A stretch of 64,000 bases of DNA. It comes from a phage. The stretch's first letter is position 1, and each line of letters starts with the position of its first letter. Where the stretch lies: sequence record PZ452581.1. The stretch is one strand, 5' to 3'. The position numbers and the translations under genes were made by a program. Of the stretch, positions 19,894 to 49,947 are shown one piece after another. The notes beneath the pieces were generated by a model. That model ran no database searches and was not told the DNA's origin. It saw only the letters and a program-made list of their open reading frames with translations.

Positions 19894-21068
19894 TGAGTAT
19901 GTTGCAACGCCCAGGATATCCAAATCTCAGCGTTAAATTATTTGATAGCTACGACGCTTGGAGTAATAATAGATTTGTTGAATTAGCTGCTACTATTACC
20001 ACATTAACTATGCGGGATTCTCTTTATGGCCGAAATGAAGGAATGTTGCAGTTTTATGATTCTAAAAATATCCATACAAAAATGGATGGAAATGAAATAA
20101 TTCAGATTTCTGTAGCTAACGCAAACGATATTAATAATGTTAAAACACGAATTTATGGATGTAAGCATTTTTCCGTGTCAGTAGATTCAAAGGGTGATAA
20201 CATCATTGCTATTGAATTGGGAACTATTCATTCCATAGAAAATCTTAAATTTGGCAGACCGTTTTTCTCTGATGCAGGTGAATCTATAAAGGAAATGCTT
20301 GGTGTCATTTATCAGGATCGCACGTTATTAACTCCAGCAATAAATGCTATAAATGCTTATGTTCCTGATATTCCATGGACTAGCACATTTGAAAACTATT
20401 TGTCGTATGTCAGGGAAGTTGCTCTAGCTGTAGGAAGTGACAAATTTGTATTTGTGTGGCAAGACATCATGGGAGTTAACATGATGGACTATGATATGAT
20501 GATAAATCAAGAACCGTATCCAATGATTGTCGGTGAGCCATCTTTAATAGGTCAATTCATCCAAGAATTAAAATATCCATTAGCATATGATTTCGTTTGG
20601 TTGACTAAATCGAATCCTCATAAACGTGACCCAATGAAAAATGCTACTATCTATGCTCATTCATTTTTAGATTCTTCATTGCCAATGATTACTACAGGAA
20701 AGGGCGAAAACTCTATTGTAGTATCAAGGTCAGGTGCTTATTCTGAAATGACTTATAGGAATGGCTATGAAGAAGCTATTCGTCTTCAAACTATGGCACA
20801 ATACGATGGCTATGCTAAATGTTCTACTGTCGGTAATTTTAACTTGACTCCTGGCGTTAAAATTATTTTTAATGATAGTAAAAACCAATTTAAAACAGAA
20901 TTTTACGTTGATGAAGTTATCCATGAATTATCTAATAATAATTCAGTAACTCATCTATATATGTTCACTAATGCAACGAAACTGGAAACAATAGACCCAG
21001 TTAAGGTTAAAAATGAATTTAAATCTGATACTACCACTGAAGAAAGTAGTTCTTCCAATAAGCAATAA
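19893..21068 (+). CDS. 27: Baseplate hub protein (gp27)
   Basis: 391-aa ORF; size and position as T4 gp27. Confidence 0.92.
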
Positions 21069-25383: not shown

Positions 25384-25387
25384 CAAT

Positions 25388-25405
25388 GGGGACCGAAAGG
25401 TCCCC
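25388..25405. terminator. Stem-loop GGGGACC-GAAA-GGTCCCC between convergent gene 54 and the minus-strand alt cluster
   Basis: 7-bp GC stem with GAAA loop followed by a T-rich run. Confidence 0.55.
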
Positions 25406-25411
25406 ATATTT

Positions 25412-25702
25412 TTATTTACGGAATGAAATAAAAGCAGAAACTGAAGCAACTAAACTGTCTTCAATATAAACTTCAATTTTTACTGGAGCTTCTGACTCAA
25501 ATTTACCTGTTACTACACCTTGGAAAATGCTTTCAGTCTGTTCTGGCTTTGAAAAATTTTCAGAAGGAAAAATTCCGAACTTTTTATCTGTTCCAAAAAT
25601 TTTGATAAATTCATCATAAACTGCTTCATTAAAAGCATTATCAGCAGGAATAACGCCTTCAACTACAAGTTCTTGACCTAAAAAGCGCAAAGAAGATTTC
25701 AT
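25412..25702 (-). CDS. Hypothetical protein (alt.-3-like)
   Basis: 96-aa ORF, ATG preceded by GAGGA; downstream of an early promoter. Confidence 0.6.
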   Translation of the reverse strand: MKSSLRFLGQELVVEGVIPADNAFNEAVYDEFIKIFGTDKKFGIFPSENFSKPEQTESIFQGVVTGKFESEAPVKIEVYIEDSLVASVSAFISFRK

Positions 25703-25710
25703 TTTGTGTT

Positions 25711-25763
25711 CCTCATGTTATGTCAGTAAAATTACTATAACACAACACGAGGGACTTGTAAAC
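25711..25763 (-). promoter_or_regulatory. Early promoter plus leader cassette, copy A
   Basis: Minus strand: -35 GTTTAC, 18-nt spacer ending in TGT, -10 TATAGT, then leader with GAGGA; 50 of 53 nt identical to copy B at 41471-41523. Confidence 0.6.
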
Positions 25764-27820
25764 TACATCTTGAACTTTTTAGACATTCCGTTGATGTTAA
25801 CCAAAGAAGCCAAGATTTGAGAAACTTCGTTTTCCTCTTCTTTTGATTCTTCTACAAGGAATTGATTAAACCCAGCCATTGGACGAACTTCACCAGTTTC
25901 CATCAGATGATCGCCATCATATATCGATTCTTCTAATTGTTCAGAAGGAGGAACGATTGTGCCTTCGATTAGATACTTGTTATAAGCAGTTTCTTTCATC
26001 ATGTACGTGCTTACTTTATTAATCTTCAACAAAATTCCACGCGGTAAAATAACTTCAGCTTCTGATGGAAATCCTGATAAATGACCTGGAACGATAACTT
26101 TAATTCGCTCAGCTCCTTTTATTACCATACCTACGCTAGTTTCAGCATCTTCATTAGCATATGCAGAATGACTACCCATATGCATTAAATCTTCAGCATC
26201 AACGGAACCTTCTCCTTCACCAGAAAATACTGCACCGGAATCATCTAGAGCCATATAGTTTTTACCATGCTCACCGAAGATATTTGGTTTAAGCGATGTT
26301 GATACGAAGTTCTTGAAATAGAACATTTTATTTTCAATATTATGACGTAAAGTTTTAAAGGTAACTTCTTGTCCACGGTAAAGTGTAGTTCCCGGAGGAA
26401 GAACTGATCCTTTGGCGAATGCAGAATCCAGCGTCTCGATGTGTTTAATAGCTCGTTCCATGTATTCTTCACGGGTAGAATCTGGTTTACCCAAGAGGAA
26501 CGAGTTCATTTCAACATATGAATCTGCACAATAATCTTCAATTACATCAGACTCAGCCTGAGTCAGTCCTTTTGGAGTTACTTCGGTGCTTGCGTATTCA
26601 TATGCCTGAGCAGCAGATTCATTAATCAATTTATAAATGCCATTCATGACAAATTGAATAATAGCTACCTTTTCGTCTGGCGTGGCTTTAGAACCTTTAA
26701 CTAAATCATTGATAATTTTCTTAATAACATCAAAGCTATTAGAAATATTAATGTCAGCGAGATCGCTCAAAATTTTATCGGTTTTATAATCAAAGAATTC
26801 TTTATTCTTTAAATATTCTTGAGAACCTTGATATGTTATATCGCTCTGCAGCTTGATAGATGGATCACGTAAACGTGCATGGGCCAATGCAATATGATTT
26901 CGGAAGCTTTCTAGTTCATAATCGTTAGATTTAAAACGAGAAGCACTTCTCATACCACCGATAGCTCCTTTGCCGAAGTTTGAACCAATCTGAATAACGC
27001 CAGAGTTCATTGGTCCTTCTGCTTTATATACCGGAACTTTAGATTCAAACTCTTGATATTTCTTGGCAGCGAAGCTATCGCCTTGAAGTGAAGCATCGAC
27101 AGTAGAGTATTGAGCTTGTGCTGCTAATCGACGACTAATTTTAGTTTTCTGAATAACAGCTTGATCCGTGCGCTTATCATTTTCTAAAGCAATAGAAGCA
27201 GCAACAGCAACAGCTTTAGGAACAGCATTACCTGTTTTAACATCTACATAAACATCACCAACCTTTGATTCAACTTTTGTGAATAACTCAGTTGAAATAG
27301 GAGGTACACCTGGAATGTCTTCTAAATTGGCATTTTTACGGTAAACCATAATATATGCATACTTTTTATCGTAATCCCAGATTTCCTTTAAAAGAACATA
27401 TCGACCTGCTCCTTTAGTACGTACTAAACGGTCAGCAATAACTTGCATTTGACGAGCTGCGCCATTTGTTTTACTTTTTAGTACGCGGAATAGGCATGCG
27501 TCAATTTTATACTGTTTCATTGTTTGAAGAGCAGTATCAAAAACCGCATTAATAACACCAATTGGATTTCCACCCAAGTTTTTAAGTTTAACTAATGATA
27601 GTTTCTCATTAACACCTATCATTACGATATGCATCATTTTATCGCCTGGCTTAACGTTTTTATTTGTATCACCGCCAGAGGTGTATGTACAAAATCTAAA
27701 TCCAGGAAGCACGCTTTCTTCACCGGCTTGAATAGCAAAAATTTGAGGTATTTTATGCTTGGGATTTAAGTTAACAACCGGCGCCGAAGCGCCGTCAAAT
27801 AATTCTGTAATAAGTTCCAT
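25763..27820 (-). CDS. Alt-like mono-ADP-ribosyltransferase, downstream paralog
   Basis: 685-aa ORF; N-terminal MELITELFD and first ~200 aa similar to the upstream 698-aa gene; C-terminal R-S-E ART motifs (YRGQ..., FVSTSL, EAEVILPRG). Confidence 0.8.
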   Translation of the reverse strand: MELITELFDGASAPVVNLNPKHKIPQIFAIQAGEESVLPGFRFCTYTSGGDTNKNVKPGDKMMHIVMIGVNEKLSLVKLKNLGGNPIGVINAVFDTALQTMKQYKIDACLFRVLKSKTNGAARQMQVIADRLVRTKGAGRYVLLKEIWDYDKKYAYIMVYRKNANLEDIPGVPPISTELFTKVESKVGDVYVDVKTGNAVPKAVAVAASIALENDKRTDQAVIQKTKISRRLAAQAQYSTVDASLQGDSFAAKKYQEFESKVPVYKAEGPMNSGVIQIGSNFGKGAIGGMRSASRFKSNDYELESFRNHIALAHARLRDPSIKLQSDITYQGSQEYLKNKEFFDYKTDKILSDLADINISNSFDVIKKIINDLVKGSKATPDEKVAIIQFVMNGIYKLINESAAQAYEYASTEVTPKGLTQAESDVIEDYCADSYVEMNSFLLGKPDSTREEYMERAIKHIETLDSAFAKGSVLPPGTTLYRGQEVTFKTLRHNIENKMFYFKNFVSTSLKPNIFGEHGKNYMALDDSGAVFSGEGEGSVDAEDLMHMGSHSAYANEDAETSVGMVIKGAERIKVIVPGHLSGFPSEAEVILPRGILLKINKVSTYMMKETAYNKYLIEGTIVPPSEQLEESIYDGDHLMETGEVRPMAGFNQFLVEESKEEENEVSQILASLVNINGMSKKFKM

Positions 27821-27823
27821 GAT

Positions 27824-29920
27824 TTATCCTTGAACGAACTTGTAAGGCATGTTTGTAATATCTATGCAAGATGCAATAATTCCAAGAGATGATTCTACTT
27901 TTTGTTTAACATTTGATGAAACAAATGATGCAAAGTCAACTCTGTCTTCTATTTCAATATCACCTGTCATTGCAACTACTTCACCAGTTTCCATTAGACG
28001 GTCACCGTCATAAATGACTGATTCGGTGAGTTCTTCCGTAGTCATAACTTCAGCTTGAATGAGTTTTGTATTATTAGATGTTGTTCCATCATTATTAGAA
28101 GCATCAGTTATTTTATTAACTTTGACCATCAATCCGCGTGGTAGAATTACTTCAGCTTCTGTTGCTATTCCGAGACTTCCTGGATATACAACATTAACTT
28201 TATGAGCTCCATCAATTGCCCATCCTATTTGAACTTTAACGTATTCAGGATTTTCTTTATACGCTCTTATTTCGTTTGGATTAATAGTTATTCCTTCTTC
28301 ATTTTTATCAACTGTCAATTCGTTACGAGCTTCTGGTTCTAAAAGACCAATACCAGCATGTGTAATTCCAAAACGTCCAAAAATGATAGGAGTTAAAGAA
28401 GTAGATACAAAATTTCTGAAATAGAATACTTTATTTTTAACTAATGCTTCGTATATAGGAGCAGTCATGCTTTGAGCACGATAAACTGTAATGCCTTCTG
28501 GTATACGGTCACCGTTTTCAAAAGCTGAATCTAAGTTATTTATAGCAGATTCAATTTCTTTTTCACTCATTACATCATATCGTTCTGGATTGTAACGACC
28601 CAAAAGAAGATTATTGATGTCAGTATATCCTGATCCACAATACTCTCTAATGCCGCGCTTTTGTGATGGAGTATATTTAGAACCATCACGGGCAATAGTA
28701 ATATCAATCATTGGACCTGCACCAATTCCAGAAAAGCTATAAATCATTCGTTTGAGGAATTTAGTTTTTGCCGCGTTCCAGGAATTTTTAGTTATTTCTT
28801 CCCAGACTTCATCTGGCTGTCCTTTACGTGTTTTATTATGTTTATCAAGCCATTTATCTTTGTATTCTTCAAAGAATTTATTAACAGCTGCTGCGTATTT
28901 CTCTAAACATTTTATTGAAGTAGTTGGTTCATTTTTGATCGCGTTAAAAATTACGTCTTTAATTTTTTCAGAAACTTCATTAACCTCACTTTTTGAAAAG
29001 AATTTATAGTCATAATGAAGTTCATCTGCAGTTCCTTCAGCAATAATTTTTGCTGCCTTAGTTTTAGAAGCCAATGAATTAATTCCAAGTTTCATTTCTT
29101 CTGCTTCGGGAATTAAAGGAGCGGTAGCAGGTTTATTGAAATTAGCTGCGGTAGATTCATACTTCTGGAATAATTCGCTTTCAAATCTAGAAGATTCTAA
29201 TGATTGACTTTGTGCAATTGCTCTACGGGAAATTTTAACTTTAACAATAACAGCTTGGTCAGAACGTTTATCATTTTCTTGCGCAATAGATGCAGCAATT
29301 GCCTCATTTTTAGTTACTTGAGCTCCAGTATCTTTATTGATATAAACATCACCGACCTTCGATTCAACTTTAGTAAAGAGCTCGGTGCTAATTTCCGGAA
29401 CTCCTGGAATGTCTTCTAGTGATACATTTTTGCGATGTATAAGAATATATGCATACTTTTTATCGTAATCCCAGAGTTCCTTAAGAAGGACGTATCTGCC
29501 ACCTGAACGACTGCGGATAAGTCTATCAGCAATAAGTTGAATTTGACGAGCTTGACCAGCAGTTTTAGACTTAAGAATACGGAGCATACAGGCATCAATT
29601 TTATACTGACGCATCGTCTGCATCGCAACAGTAAAAACTGAATTGATGTAATTAATTGGGCTTGGACCGAGACCTTTTAATTTAGCAATTGAACCTTTAG
29701 CAGTTAATGTAAAAGGAACAATATGCATCATTTTATCGCCCATCTTTAAATCGCGATTAGTATCACCTCCAGATGTATAAGTACATAAACGAAAACCTGG
29801 TTGTTCAATTGCGTCATCAACATGAACTGAAAAAATTTGTGGTATTTTCTTCTTTGGATTTAAGTTTGTAATCGGAAGAGTAGTATCTTCGTCAAATAAT
29901 TCTGTAATGAGTTCCATCAT
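27824..29920 (-). CDS. alt: Alt mono-ADP-ribosyltransferase (capsid-packaged, late promoter)
   Basis: 698-aa ORF; C-terminal ART motifs (YRAQ, FVSTSL, EAEVILPRG); own TATAAATA late promoter. Confidence 0.85.
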   Translation of the reverse strand: MMELITELFDEDTTLPITNLNPKKKIPQIFSVHVDDAIEQPGFRLCTYTSGGDTNRDLKMGDKMMHIVPFTLTAKGSIAKLKGLGPSPINYINSVFTVAMQTMRQYKIDACMLRILKSKTAGQARQIQLIADRLIRSRSGGRYVLLKELWDYDKKYAYILIHRKNVSLEDIPGVPEISTELFTKVESKVGDVYINKDTGAQVTKNEAIAASIAQENDKRSDQAVIVKVKISRRAIAQSQSLESSRFESELFQKYESTAANFNKPATAPLIPEAEEMKLGINSLASKTKAAKIIAEGTADELHYDYKFFSKSEVNEVSEKIKDVIFNAIKNEPTTSIKCLEKYAAAVNKFFEEYKDKWLDKHNKTRKGQPDEVWEEITKNSWNAAKTKFLKRMIYSFSGIGAGPMIDITIARDGSKYTPSQKRGIREYCGSGYTDINNLLLGRYNPERYDVMSEKEIESAINNLDSAFENGDRIPEGITVYRAQSMTAPIYEALVKNKVFYFRNFVSTSLTPIIFGRFGITHAGIGLLEPEARNELTVDKNEEGITINPNEIRAYKENPEYVKVQIGWAIDGAHKVNVVYPGSLGIATEAEVILPRGLMVKVNKITDASNNDGTTSNNTKLIQAEVMTTEELTESVIYDGDRLMETGEVVAMTGDIEIEDRVDFASFVSSNVKQKVESSLGIIASCIDITNMPYKFVQG

Positions 29921-29940: not shown

Positions 29941-29948
29941 TATTTATA
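29941..29948 (-). promoter_or_regulatory. Late promoter TATAAATA (minus strand) for alt
   Basis: Plus-strand TATTTATA about 21 nt upstream of the alt ATG at 29920. Confidence 0.6.
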
Positions 29949-33595: not shown

Positions 33596-33882
33596 TAGAA
33601 CCTCATCTGAAAACCATGCGATTTAACATTACCGCCGCCAATATCAGAAATGTTAATTTCACGCGCAATTGAAGGGTCAATGTCAATTTCACGATTAAGT
33701 TTAGTGATAGCTAAAGTATCGCGGCCATTTACAGTACGGAACTCTAAAGGGCAGACTACATTAACATAGTTTTTAATCGATTCACTAGTAGGCTGCAAAT
33801 GAGCAGGAAGGTCTTTAGGTGCCTTAGAGAAAACCACTTCACAGAAATTTTTGCGGGTATCAAAATAAGTAGTCATAAACAT
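33595..33882 (-). CDS. Hypothetical protein
   Basis: 95-aa ORF, ATG preceded by GAGGA. Confidence 0.55.
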   Translation of the reverse strand: MFMTTYFDTRKNFCEVVFSKAPKDLPAHLQPTSESIKNYVNVVCPLEFRTVNGRDTLAITKLNREIDIDPSIAREINISDIGGGNVKSHGFQMRF

Positions 33883-33923: not shown

Positions 33924-34289
33924 TTAAATATCAAATTCGTTAAGAACTACATCAAAGATTGCTTCCAGATGCTCAGGTTTAGCTCTGTTACTCAGAATAT
34001 GACGAATCCAAGTTTTAACCAGAAGCTTGCGATTAACGCCATTCCAGCAAGGATGAGTCCCTAAATCGCGTTGACGAAAATCATCATCCAATGCGATTTT
34101 AAAAGAAGAACCTTCTTTCGTGATTGAAACCGTGATGCCATTTTCAAATCGCATATAAACGTAGTTAGGAGTCATATACTGTTCAATTTCGCATACTGAT
34201 CCATTTTGATGTTTCCAAAGGCAGATAGTATCAATAGAACCTGCAATACCGTTAGAAACATATTTACGTTCAAAGTTGATGTAATTCAT
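33924..34289 (-). CDS. Hypothetical protein (30.7-like)
   Basis: 121-aa ORF, ATG start; downstream of an early promoter. Confidence 0.55.
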   Translation of the reverse strand: MNYINFERKYVSNGIAGSIDTICLWKHQNGSVCEIEQYMTPNYVYMRFENGITVSITKEGSSFKIALDDDFRQRDLGTHPCWNGVNRKLLVKTWIRHILSNRAKPEHLEAIFDVVLNEFDI

Positions 34290-34326: not shown

Positions 34327-34355
34327 ATAATATCATATCCTGTACCAAAGTAAAC
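34327..34355 (-). promoter_or_regulatory. Early promoter (GTTTAC, 17 nt, TGA-TATTAT)
   Basis: Minus-strand GTTTAC, 17-nt spacer, extended -10 TGATATTAT; inverted repeat GGTACAGG/CTTGTACC brackets the -10. Confidence 0.55.
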
Positions 34356-34359
34356 TATT

Positions 34360-34728
34360 TTATGCAACTTTAATCCAATTATCTAAATTTAATTCACCTT
34401 TGGCTTTCATTTTTTCAATCAAGAGGTCAGCGGTAATACGACCATTTTGATACCACGTAACATCTTCAGAGTAACCAGTTTCTTTATCTTCATAAGTCTC
34501 GCAGCGAATTTTACCAAGAATCAAAGTTTTTAATTCGTATGTATCTCCAGTAAAAAAGTTAGTTAACATTATTTTCCAAGAGAAATCATCAGAAGGACCT
34601 TCAGGAGTCATACAATCTACGAATTCAAATTGTTCTTTGTATAAGTGCCACTGAAGTTCTTTAGTTTCGATAGCTTTATAGCCGTCGTGATCTTTACCTT
34701 TGATGTATGAGTTAAGATTGATTTTCAT
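34360..34728 (-). CDS. Hypothetical protein (30.8-like)
   Basis: 122-aa ORF, ATG start. Confidence 0.55.
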   Translation of the reverse strand: MKINLNSYIKGKDHDGYKAIETKELQWHLYKEQFEFVDCMTPEGPSDDFSWKIMLTNFFTGDTYELKTLILGKIRCETYEDKETGYSEDVTWYQNGRITADLLIEKMKAKGELNLDNWIKVA

Positions 34729-34815
34729 TTTATTCTCCTTTGTTTGTGTAAGATAATACTATCACAAAGGAACCATACTGTAAACAACTTTGTGCAATCT
34801 TTGGAAAATAAAAAA

Positions 34816-40618: not shown

Positions 40619-40968
40619 TTAGAAAGGTCCTGGATGTCTTCTGCGAACTTGTTGAAGGAGTTGTTGATTTGTTTTTCAACCAATCCTGGCTTATGAGCCA
40701 CCACATCCGCCTTCTTTGCGTCTTTGCGCAGTTTTTCATTTTCACGCTCAATAGCAGCAATTGCCTCACGATTTTTATTATTCATCGCATCAATATAATT
40801 ATACTGAATTCGCAAATTATTTAATGCTAAAGCGTTTTCATTGGCCGTTTTTGTAATTTCTACAACAGACGTTTCTAATCTTTCAATTTTATTTTTTAAA
40901 ATTAAAGAAGTTCCGCCTAATGCAATTACAATTAATAGCAAGCCTGCTGTCGTATTACTTAATTGCAT
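40615..40968 (-). CDS. Inner-membrane spanin (i-spanin, Rz-like)
   Basis: 117-aa ORF with N-terminal transmembrane segment (AGLLLIVIALGGTSLIL) followed by a coiled-coil-like region. Confidence 0.65.
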   Translation of the reverse strand: MQLSNTTAGLLLIVIALGGTSLILKNKIERLETSVVEITKTANENALALNNLRIQYNYIDAMNNKNREAIAAIERENEKLRKDAKKADVVAHKPGLVEKQINNSFNKFAEDIQDLSK

Positions 40969-41465
40969 AAAGTTTTAATAACCTCTATAATATCGTCTTG
41001 AGAAAGACCGTTAATTAAAATATGATGTTCAGCCGGAGATTTAGAAATTTTAAAGCATGCCTCAACATCTTCTGCCATATCCGATGCACTACGATTTGGA
41101 TTACTAATTCCAAGACGATGCTTTCCAGTCAAAGGATTAACGATGATATAGCATTTGCAGCTATTGATATGAACATTAGGCTGAGTCTGATTAATGAATA
41201 CTTCGCACTCATACTTAGCGAGTTGATTTTCTAAAAAGACTTTCATCTCCTCAACCGCATCAGGAAGCATATCACGGGCTTGCTCAAGACGACGATTTCG
41301 ATATTCTTTAATGGTCGTTTTCCGCTTGACTTGCTTAGCTAAATCTTTCTTAAGATCGGTGATATATCCAACTCGACGATTTCCTTTGAATACAGAAATC
41401 CCATCTGTAGTATCACCGTATGCTTCAACGACCATTTCAGTAGTAATAAGCTGCAAATCCATCAT
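40959..41465 (-). CDS. alc: Alc (host transcription unfolding / elongation terminator on cytosine DNA)
   Basis: 168-aa ORF; size and position between pseT cluster and rnlA as in T4. Confidence 0.8.
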   Translation of the reverse strand: MMDLQLITTEMVVEAYGDTTDGISVFKGNRRVGYITDLKKDLAKQVKRKTTIKEYRNRRLEQARDMLPDAVEEMKVFLENQLAKYECEVFINQTQPNVHINSCKCYIIVNPLTGKHRLGISNPNRSASDMAEDVEACFKISKSPAEHHILINGLSQDDIIEVIKTLCN

Positions 41466-41470
41466 AAAGT

Positions 41471-41523
41471 CCTCATGTTATGTCAGTAAGACTACTGTAA
41501 CACAACACGAGGGACTTGTAAAC
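41471..41523 (-). promoter_or_regulatory. Early promoter plus leader cassette, copy B
   Basis: Minus strand: -35 GTTTAC, 18-nt spacer, TGT-TACAGT, leader with GAGGA; 50 of 53 nt identical to copy A. Confidence 0.6.
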
Positions 41524-41526
41524 AGC

Positions 41527-43114
<1,588 letters not shown>

Positions 43115-49910: not shown

Positions 49911-49947
49911 TAGGGTAATAGTATCACACTACTACCCTGTTGTAAAC
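49911..49947 (-). promoter_or_regulatory. Early promoter (GTTTAC, 18 nt, TGA-TACTAT) with flanking inverted repeat
   Basis: Minus-strand GTTTAC, spacer, TACTAT; near-palindrome AGGGTAGTAGTGTGATACTATTACCCT spans the -10. Confidence 0.55.

Follow-up and report, generated by a model that had tools for sequence, protein, structure and literature searches.

A near-identical 54-bp early promoter cassette upstream of alc and alt.-3 in Tequatrovirus phages, with a predicted hairpin that may restrict translation to its own transcripts

The closest described systems are the PeSL (promoter-early stem-loop) cassettes of T4-type phages (Arbiol et al. 2010, PMC2839356), whose stems were interpreted as attenuators, a class later extended to the Tequatrovirus PST by Comeau et al. 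(2014, PMC4122927). These cassettes combine a strong sigma-70-type early promoter, a stem-loop placed between the -35 and -10 elements or over the -10, and a terminal Shine-Dalgarno sequence (SD) with a start codon; they lie between ORFs of the same direction, occur in several mutually similar copies per genome, are associated with indels and have been proposed to recombine with one another. A second group is represented by the T4 genes e (lysozyme), soc, 49 and I-TevI, where a hairpin sequestering the ribosome binding site (RBS) is bypassed by an internal promoter (PMC3014915). In these genes a helix holds the SD, and only transcripts initiated upstream contain the 5' strand of that helix; the internal promoter yields a translatable message, the outcome being temporal control of translation. 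Neither alc nor alt.-3 is listed among the hairpin cases in the T4 reviews consulted, including PMC3014915, and older T4 papers may note the repeat or the hairpin. The control of alt.-3 expression is of some interest, as this gene has lately gained relevance for the CmdTAC defence system (PMC11618068).

The window, that is, the whole 64-kb stretch of phage DNA analysed here, comes from a Tequatrovirus with 98-99% identity to Shfl2, SH-1 and relatives, and carries one such cassette upstream of alc and another upstream of alt.-3. Both share the promoter, stem-loop, position between ORFs and repetition described above, may recombine with each other as proposed for PeSL copies, and fall within the PeSL definition, having an early promoter, a stem-loop between the -35 and -10 elements or over the -10 in the predicted fold, and an SD followed by ATG. 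Besides these similarities, there are differences: the alc/alt.-3 stem extends to the SD, covariation conserves the stem at one locus (alc), the repeat covers 54 bp with sharp edges instead of about 100 bp, and, unlike the RB49 PeSL elements, the cassettes have neither a U-tract nor a G/C-tract. Moreover, as the copies number only two and lie 13-16 kb apart on either side of essential genes, excision of a mini-circle would not be viable. A stable, G+C-containing intergenic hairpin is also shared with intrinsic terminators, which differ in having the U-tract that is absent here. Regarding e, soc, 49 and I-TevI, the cassettes are predicted to resemble them in having the SD in a helix, the 5' strand only on upstream-started transcripts and a translatable message from the internal promoter, so that the same logic of temporal control may apply to alc and alt.-3. 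However, the internal promoter of those genes is late (gp55 class), giving late-only translation, whereas that of the cassettes is an early sigma-70 promoter whose spacer would be the anti-SD, giving a predicted early-only translation; a late internal promoter (TATAAATA) is found in neither cassette. The alc/alt.-3 pair is then a clear example of known T4 regulatory designs and not a new kind of element.

As read at both loci and recovered by a mismatch search, the repeat comprises 54 bp on the minus strand, at 25710-25763 and 41470-41523, with 3 mismatches; the near-identity claimed in the preliminary description is confirmed, with one base more than the 53 given there. The sequence shared by both loci, on the minus strand, is GTTTACAAGTCCCTCGTGTTGTGTTA[T/C]AGTA[A/G]T[T/C]TTACTGACATAACATGAGGA. 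The anatomy described earlier was also read at both loci in the minus orientation, in the order GTTTAC, an 18-nt spacer with a terminal TGT, TATAGT or TACAGT, and a leader ending in GAGGA, located 4-10 nt from the start codon. In the alt.-3 cassette (25710-25763), the -35 GTTTAC is at 25758-25763, the extended -10 (TGT TATAGT) ends at 25734 and the SD GAGGA is at 25710-25714, while in the alc cassette (41470-41523) the -35 lies at 41518-41523, the -10 TACAGT at 41494-41499 and the SD at 41470-41474, all on the minus strand. The edges of the repeat are sharp, the flanking DNA being unrelated between the two loci on both the 5' and the 3' side. The mismatch search returned only these two in the 64-kb window and no match in 100 dinucleotide-preserving shuffles.

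Extended consensus elements are common to T4 early promoters, and a tight consensus, or chance, might be thought to account for the similarity. The comparison set consisted of the eight T4-type early promoters on the minus strand of the window that are followed by an SD and a start codon. The alc/alt.-3 pair is identical at 51/54 positions, compared to a mean of 24.6 and a maximum of 36 for the remaining pairs; when the -35 and -10 elements are excluded, the values are 37/39 for alc/alt.-3 and a mean of 13.9 (maximum 22) for the other pairs. Among 150 within-genome promoter pairs from seven genera (29.0 +/- 4.9), alc/alt.-3 is the maximum, 4.5 SD above the mean. The identity thus goes beyond what the promoter consensus requires, as had been claimed, and on exact alignment it is not confined to consensus positions. 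The alignment already refutes the reading by chance or consensus, which was rejected, and, considering also the empty shuffles, its probability is practically negligible.

The alt.-3 cassette serves a 96-aa gene of the Pfam family DUF5498 (alt.-3, 25412-25702, minus), and the other serves alc (40959-41465, minus; Pfam ALC), an inhibitor of host transcription. At the start of alc, there are two adjacent in-frame ATGs (41462-41465, minus), the second of which (41462) corresponds to the T4 annotation and has the better SD spacing (7 nt). Read-through into alt.-3 would come from an alt-like ADP-ribosyltransferase paralogue (25763-27820, minus), whose stop codon overlaps the -35 G of the cassette, preceded by alt (27824-29920, minus). 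Just upstream of alt there is a late promoter, TATAAATA (29941-29948, minus), matched by a late-promoter annotation at the corresponding position of phage Lutter, and transcripts from it can continue through both alt genes into alt.-3. The source of read-through into alc is rnlA (RNA ligase 1; 41527-42651, minus). A MotA-box middle promoter (ATGCTTCC-N13-TACTAT) is predicted directly upstream of rnlA, at approximately 42650-42703 (minus), and is absent from the published list of T4 middle promoters. The terminator scan found no terminator between alt, the alt-like gene and alt.-3, nor between rnlA and alc; it did find a bidirectional terminator hairpin at 25386-25407, closing the alt/alt.-3 unit against gene 54.

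Both cassettes read as T4-type early (sigma-70) promoters, with GTTTAC(A/T), a 17-18 bp spacer, a TGn extended -10 and TAnnnT, and both carry a promoter annotation in phage Lutter. In T4, another phage than this one, both alc and alt.-3 belong to the early class at the RNA and at the protein level (supplement of PMC9697503); rnlA RNA is early and its protein late, and alt is a late gene (PMC9697503). These expression classes and the missing terminators fit with alc and alt.-3 being translated from their own early promoters alone. No T4 map of transcription starts was found in the literature, and the starts of both cassettes are placed by promoter geometry.

According to the predicted folds, the entire repeat forms one long RNA hairpin of roughly 45 nt that includes the SD; dG ranges from -23 to -26 kcal/mol and z from -5.3 to -5.9, whether the two copies are taken from the window or from T4. 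Its helix joins the spacer CCCUCGUGUUGUGUU to the leader GACAUAACAUGAGG by 14 contiguous pairs, three of them G.U, and the -10 region forms a 4-bp apical stem, placing the -10 element at the apex of the hairpin. For alt.-3, the predicted 5' arm, acting as anti-SD, lies in the promoter spacer at 25739-25752 (minus) and the predicted 3' arm, containing the SD, in the leader at 25711-25724 (minus). The full alc hairpin is predicted at 41467-41517 (minus; dG -25.7 kcal/mol, z -5.8) and adds to the shared 14-bp core an AAGUC/GACUU stem extension specific to the alc flank. With the -10 at the apex, the predicted start falls inside the hairpin, near 25726-25727 for alt.-3 (the -10 plus 7 nt, within the apical stem), so that the own transcript would carry only the 3' arm. 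In the predictions, 4-5 of the 5 SD nucleotides pair with bases upstream of the start and are largely free in the primary transcript. The cost of opening the SD-to-AUG region is predicted to be 14.5-14.8 kcal/mol in read-through RNA compared to 2.0-4.5 kcal/mol in the primary transcript, a contrast that, among the eight window promoters, is greatest at the alc and alt.-3 cassettes. In addition, the Tequatrovirus sense strand folds at -24.4 and the antisense at -15.4, due to the three G.U pairs. As these pairs favour folding of the sense strand, they point to a role at the RNA level more than at the DNA level; in the strand-asymmetry test, sense and antisense were separated in Tequatrovirus only. 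A DNA cruciform was rejected, given the G.U pairs and the C.A mismatches on the opposite strand.

Based on these predictions, we consider it probable that this PeSL-type cassette is a gate allowing translation from its own promoter only, and that it was copied between the two loci in the genus ancestor. Each copy would be a complete, portable module of the PeSL type, with a strong early sigma-70 promoter of the T4 kind (GTTTAC-18-TGnTAnnnT) placed within the roughly 45-nt hairpin, the spacer serving as 5' arm and anti-SD, the -10 as apex, and the leader with the SD as 3' arm. Transcripts from the embedded promoter would start inside the hairpin, at about ACUGACAUAAC in both cassettes, and would carry the 3' arm alone, leaving the RBS open for translation immediately after infection. 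Meanwhile, read-through RNA, delayed-early or middle via rnlA and late via alt, would have both arms, so that the hairpin would fold in vivo and hide the SD; from this putative block we infer that production of Alc and Alt.-3 would be limited to the time when each gene's own early promoter is active. Ribosomes that terminate on the upstream ORF come to a halt only 3-10 nt short of the helix and may open it in part, which would give coupling and not a block. If the mechanism is true, it explains how strictly early genes can lie downstream of middle and late units without terminators, as a mirror image of the classic lysozyme (e) case. The 54-bp promoter and RBS module would then be insulated from upstream transcription, with possible use in phage or synthetic-circuit engineering.

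For a comparison across genera, the syntenic alc and alt.-3 regions of other genera were fetched and folded. At alc, the spacer pairs with the leader and SD in Jiaodavirus, Gelderlandvirus, Dhakavirus, Winklervirus, Karamvirus and Bragavirus with differing sequences, the arms being, for instance, AUCCUCGUCAG/CUGAUGAGGAU in Jiaodavirus and AUCUCCGUUUAGUU/AACUAAACGGAGAU in Gelderlandvirus. In these six genera, the predicted helices have 9-14 bp and z of -3.6 to -7.1, with each SD nucleotide paired to bases before the start. RNAalifold on nine genera recovered the same alc helix, with compensatory double changes in 7/9 pairs. The alc hairpin design, as predicted, is thus kept in seven genera with different arms, which is covariation. 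The design is not obligatory for alc, as seen by its exceptions: the Mosigvirus alc has a hairpin within the spacer only and an unsequestered SD, the Kanagawavirus alc has a strong -10-centred hairpin with a free SD, and no such alc structure was found in the Acinetobacter and Aeromonas relatives. Regarding alt.-3, the promoter is another one in 6/6 outgroup genera, where the spacer forms a small CAC-AAGGA-GUG hairpin, the SD is free and z is -1.9 to +0.8. The sequences flanking these promoters (TTCAAAATGTAGTTTACAA... and ...ACATGAGGA...ATGAAATCT) and the flanks of Tequatrovirus alt.-3 are orthologous. This other promoter and free SD indicate that the Tequatrovirus alt.-3 cassette is derived.

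Other roles for the stem-loop have to be weighed against an own-promoter gate. It could mainly be a transcription attenuator or terminator, or a 3'-end stabiliser for the rnlA and alt messages, with the SD included incidentally; terminator-like activity was measured for an RB49 PeSL stem-loop and such a role was proposed (Arbiol et al. 2010, PMC2839356), and early cassettes are generally structured (mean z of -2.33 among 49), many having hairpins without contact to the SD. However, a U-tract after the stem is present in neither copy nor in the other six genera and the terminator scan flags neither cassette, and an intrinsic terminator was rejected on both counts; the genes downstream of alc (spanins, pseT, cd) need transcription to continue, and the 3' arm always ends on the SD in the seven genera while the remainder of the arm varies. 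An attenuating or stabilising function as the main role is hence unlikely. Translational coupling is a further alternative, in which, on polycistronic RNA, only ribosomes finishing rnlA or alt would free the SD of the following gene (alc or alt.-3), so that expression from read-through RNA would depend on upstream translation instead of being blocked. The stop codon of the upstream gene precedes the -35 hexamer by 0-3 nt and is 8-14 nt from the core helix, a spacing conserved in other genera, but, judging from the footprint size, a terminating ribosome should reach the outer 2-5 pairs and not the 14-bp core, and Alc and Alt.-3 are early proteins, unlike the late products of rnlA and alt; on these grounds coupling is rather improbable.

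The preliminary description had also raised a shared operator or RNA element. An RNA element is supported by the SD-containing hairpin, while the operator, a site for a sequence-specific phage or host factor co-regulating both genes, on the DNA palindrome or on the RNA hairpin, fared worse. It is true that two unlinked genes have the same 54 bp genus-wide and that the mechanism of T4 early-promoter shut-off is unknown. However, other genera keep the alc pairing and not its sequence, as expected for a structure instead of a recognition sequence, and their alt.-3 promoters do not have the element; moreover, no Rfam family matches at gathering score, chance-level miRNA hairpin matches being the only ones obtained. 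Such an operator is therefore very improbable, and translation restricted to the own transcript is kept as the preferred reading.

Considering the distribution within the genus, T4 also has the alc/alt.-3 pair, with a single mismatch and copies 13.2 kb apart, and a blastn search using the alt.-3 copy gives matches at two positions in essentially all of the ~500 Tequatrovirus records. The duplication is thus as old as the genus, dating to its ancestor, and the recent event first suggested gave way to an ancient one. The window contains two full-length alt paralogues in tandem (25763-29920, minus), compared to alt plus the remnants alt.-1 and alt.-2 in T4 and three paralogues in Dhakavirus; the second full-length paralogue accounts for the spacing of 15.8 kb here against 13.2 kb in T4. 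Sequences were sampled from 17 genomes fetched individually out of the ~500, protein-anchored scans of IMG/VR yielded 5-6 Tequatrovirus contigs, and a scan of IMG/VR with a degenerate cassette pattern gave chance matches only. In the 14 genomes with both copies read, 0-5 of the 54 positions distinguish the paralogues (1.9 on average), and the copies are identical in four: Lutter, slur14, one UViG and G28. Among the 15 cassette haplotypes within Tequatrovirus, most changes in the core helix keep the pair (C-G becomes U.G at two sites, G.U becomes A-U, U.G becomes U-A, and in one double change C-G becomes U-A), and three changes break a pair, two at the outermost core pairs and one in the apical stem (TATAGT to TATAAT). 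Variation within the genus is sparse, and the observed covariation, reached by 97/500 shuffles, is compatible with the helix and non-significant.

The cassette was probably copied from alc to alt.-3 in the Tequatrovirus ancestor, a direction that we infer from sequence comparison, and it offers a concrete, datable case of a regulatory cassette copied between distant loci. The shared ends, GTTTACA and CATGAGGA, may have served as microhomology, with the end points of the copying inside them, after which overlapping constraints of promoter, helix and SD would hold nearly every base, perhaps with occasional gene conversion. The 5' arm UCC(C)UCGU resembles the Jiaodavirus alc; the cassette ends (GTTTACAAG, ACATGAGGA), in turn, resemble alt.-3-type cassettes of other genera, which counts against this direction. 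Five variable sites are common to both loci; G28 has the same two derived bases in 3/3 copies and GBLB0003 shares two, and a permutation of pairings for shared derived alleles gave P = 0.044, which is suggestive only, because parallel mutation at weakly constrained sites may account for it. Regarding the potential site for homologous recombination noted before, these observations are faint hints of a continuing non-crossover exchange or gene conversion between the copies, while a crossover would delete or duplicate about 16 kb containing genes 30 and 31. Cassette number is two per genome and three in G28, and the alt.-3 copy adjoins the variable alt-paralogue region. In phage G28 (15898 and 16249, minus), the third copy arose through a 351-bp tandem duplication spanning the 3' end of rnlA, the cassette and the 5' part of alc, which leaves a truncated alc ORF; a TATAAT/AATC variant is found in all three copies.

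Likenesses between the two loci were also seen in other genera. In Mosigvirus OLB35 (19944-20006 and 33821-33882), the alc cassette lacks the SD-sequestering helix and bears a likeness to alt.-3-type cassettes, in its spacer hairpin (ACACCA-AGGA-UGGUGU) and in the leader AUCAACAACAYGAGGA that it shares with them. This may reflect a reverse exchange, from alt.-3 to alc, for which the global-alignment identities of 50-nt cassettes, with a high background of about 70%, give weak support. In Jiaodavirus JD18 (19960-20003 and 33792-33834), alc and alt.-3 are identical at 38/43 positions between the -10 region and the ATG but not in the spacer, and of the five differences three lie in the part of the alc 3' arm (CUG and U) that pairs with the alc spacer. 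The same phage has the second most similar within-genome pair, at 26036 and 27042 (45/54), neighbouring promoters approximately 1 kb apart, which may be another cassette copy. As a wider and more doubtful proposal, promoter-embedded anti-SD hairpins could be a general, portable own-promoter-only gate in T-even-type phages, keeping a gene silent on middle or late read-through RNA, and whole cassettes would be moved by gene conversion over short tracts (from alc to alt.-3 in Tequatrovirus and perhaps the reverse in Mosigvirus, with shared leaders in Jiaodavirus); we regard this as tentative.

Embedded hairpins are also seen at other early promoters. Among 49 early-promoter cassettes from the seven genera, z has the mean given above and is below -2 in 45%. 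Most T4-type early cassettes have a -10-centred hairpin, in the window those with the -35 G at 49947, 38198, 34785 and 34355 (minus), and at 34785 the SD (AAGGA) also pairs with its own spacer. At one promoter, whose locus offset is similar in each genome, a strong embedded hairpin is seen throughout the seven genera (z between -3.4 and -5.5), the window promoter being that at 34355 (minus), with counterparts at 27042 in Jiaodavirus JD18, 28181 in Serratia phage CHI14, 27470 in Mosigvirus OLB35, and 26481 and 27868 in two further genomes. The ORF downstream of the 34355 promoter (33924-34289) is, by its position, presumably T4 gene 30.7. This hairpin includes the SD in Gelderlandvirus and Karamvirus and may be a second conserved case similar to alc. 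Finally, in Serratia phage CHI14 (34651-34992), the annotated alt.-3 start at 34651 falls within the promoter, and the true start is likely the SD-preceded ATG at 34681.
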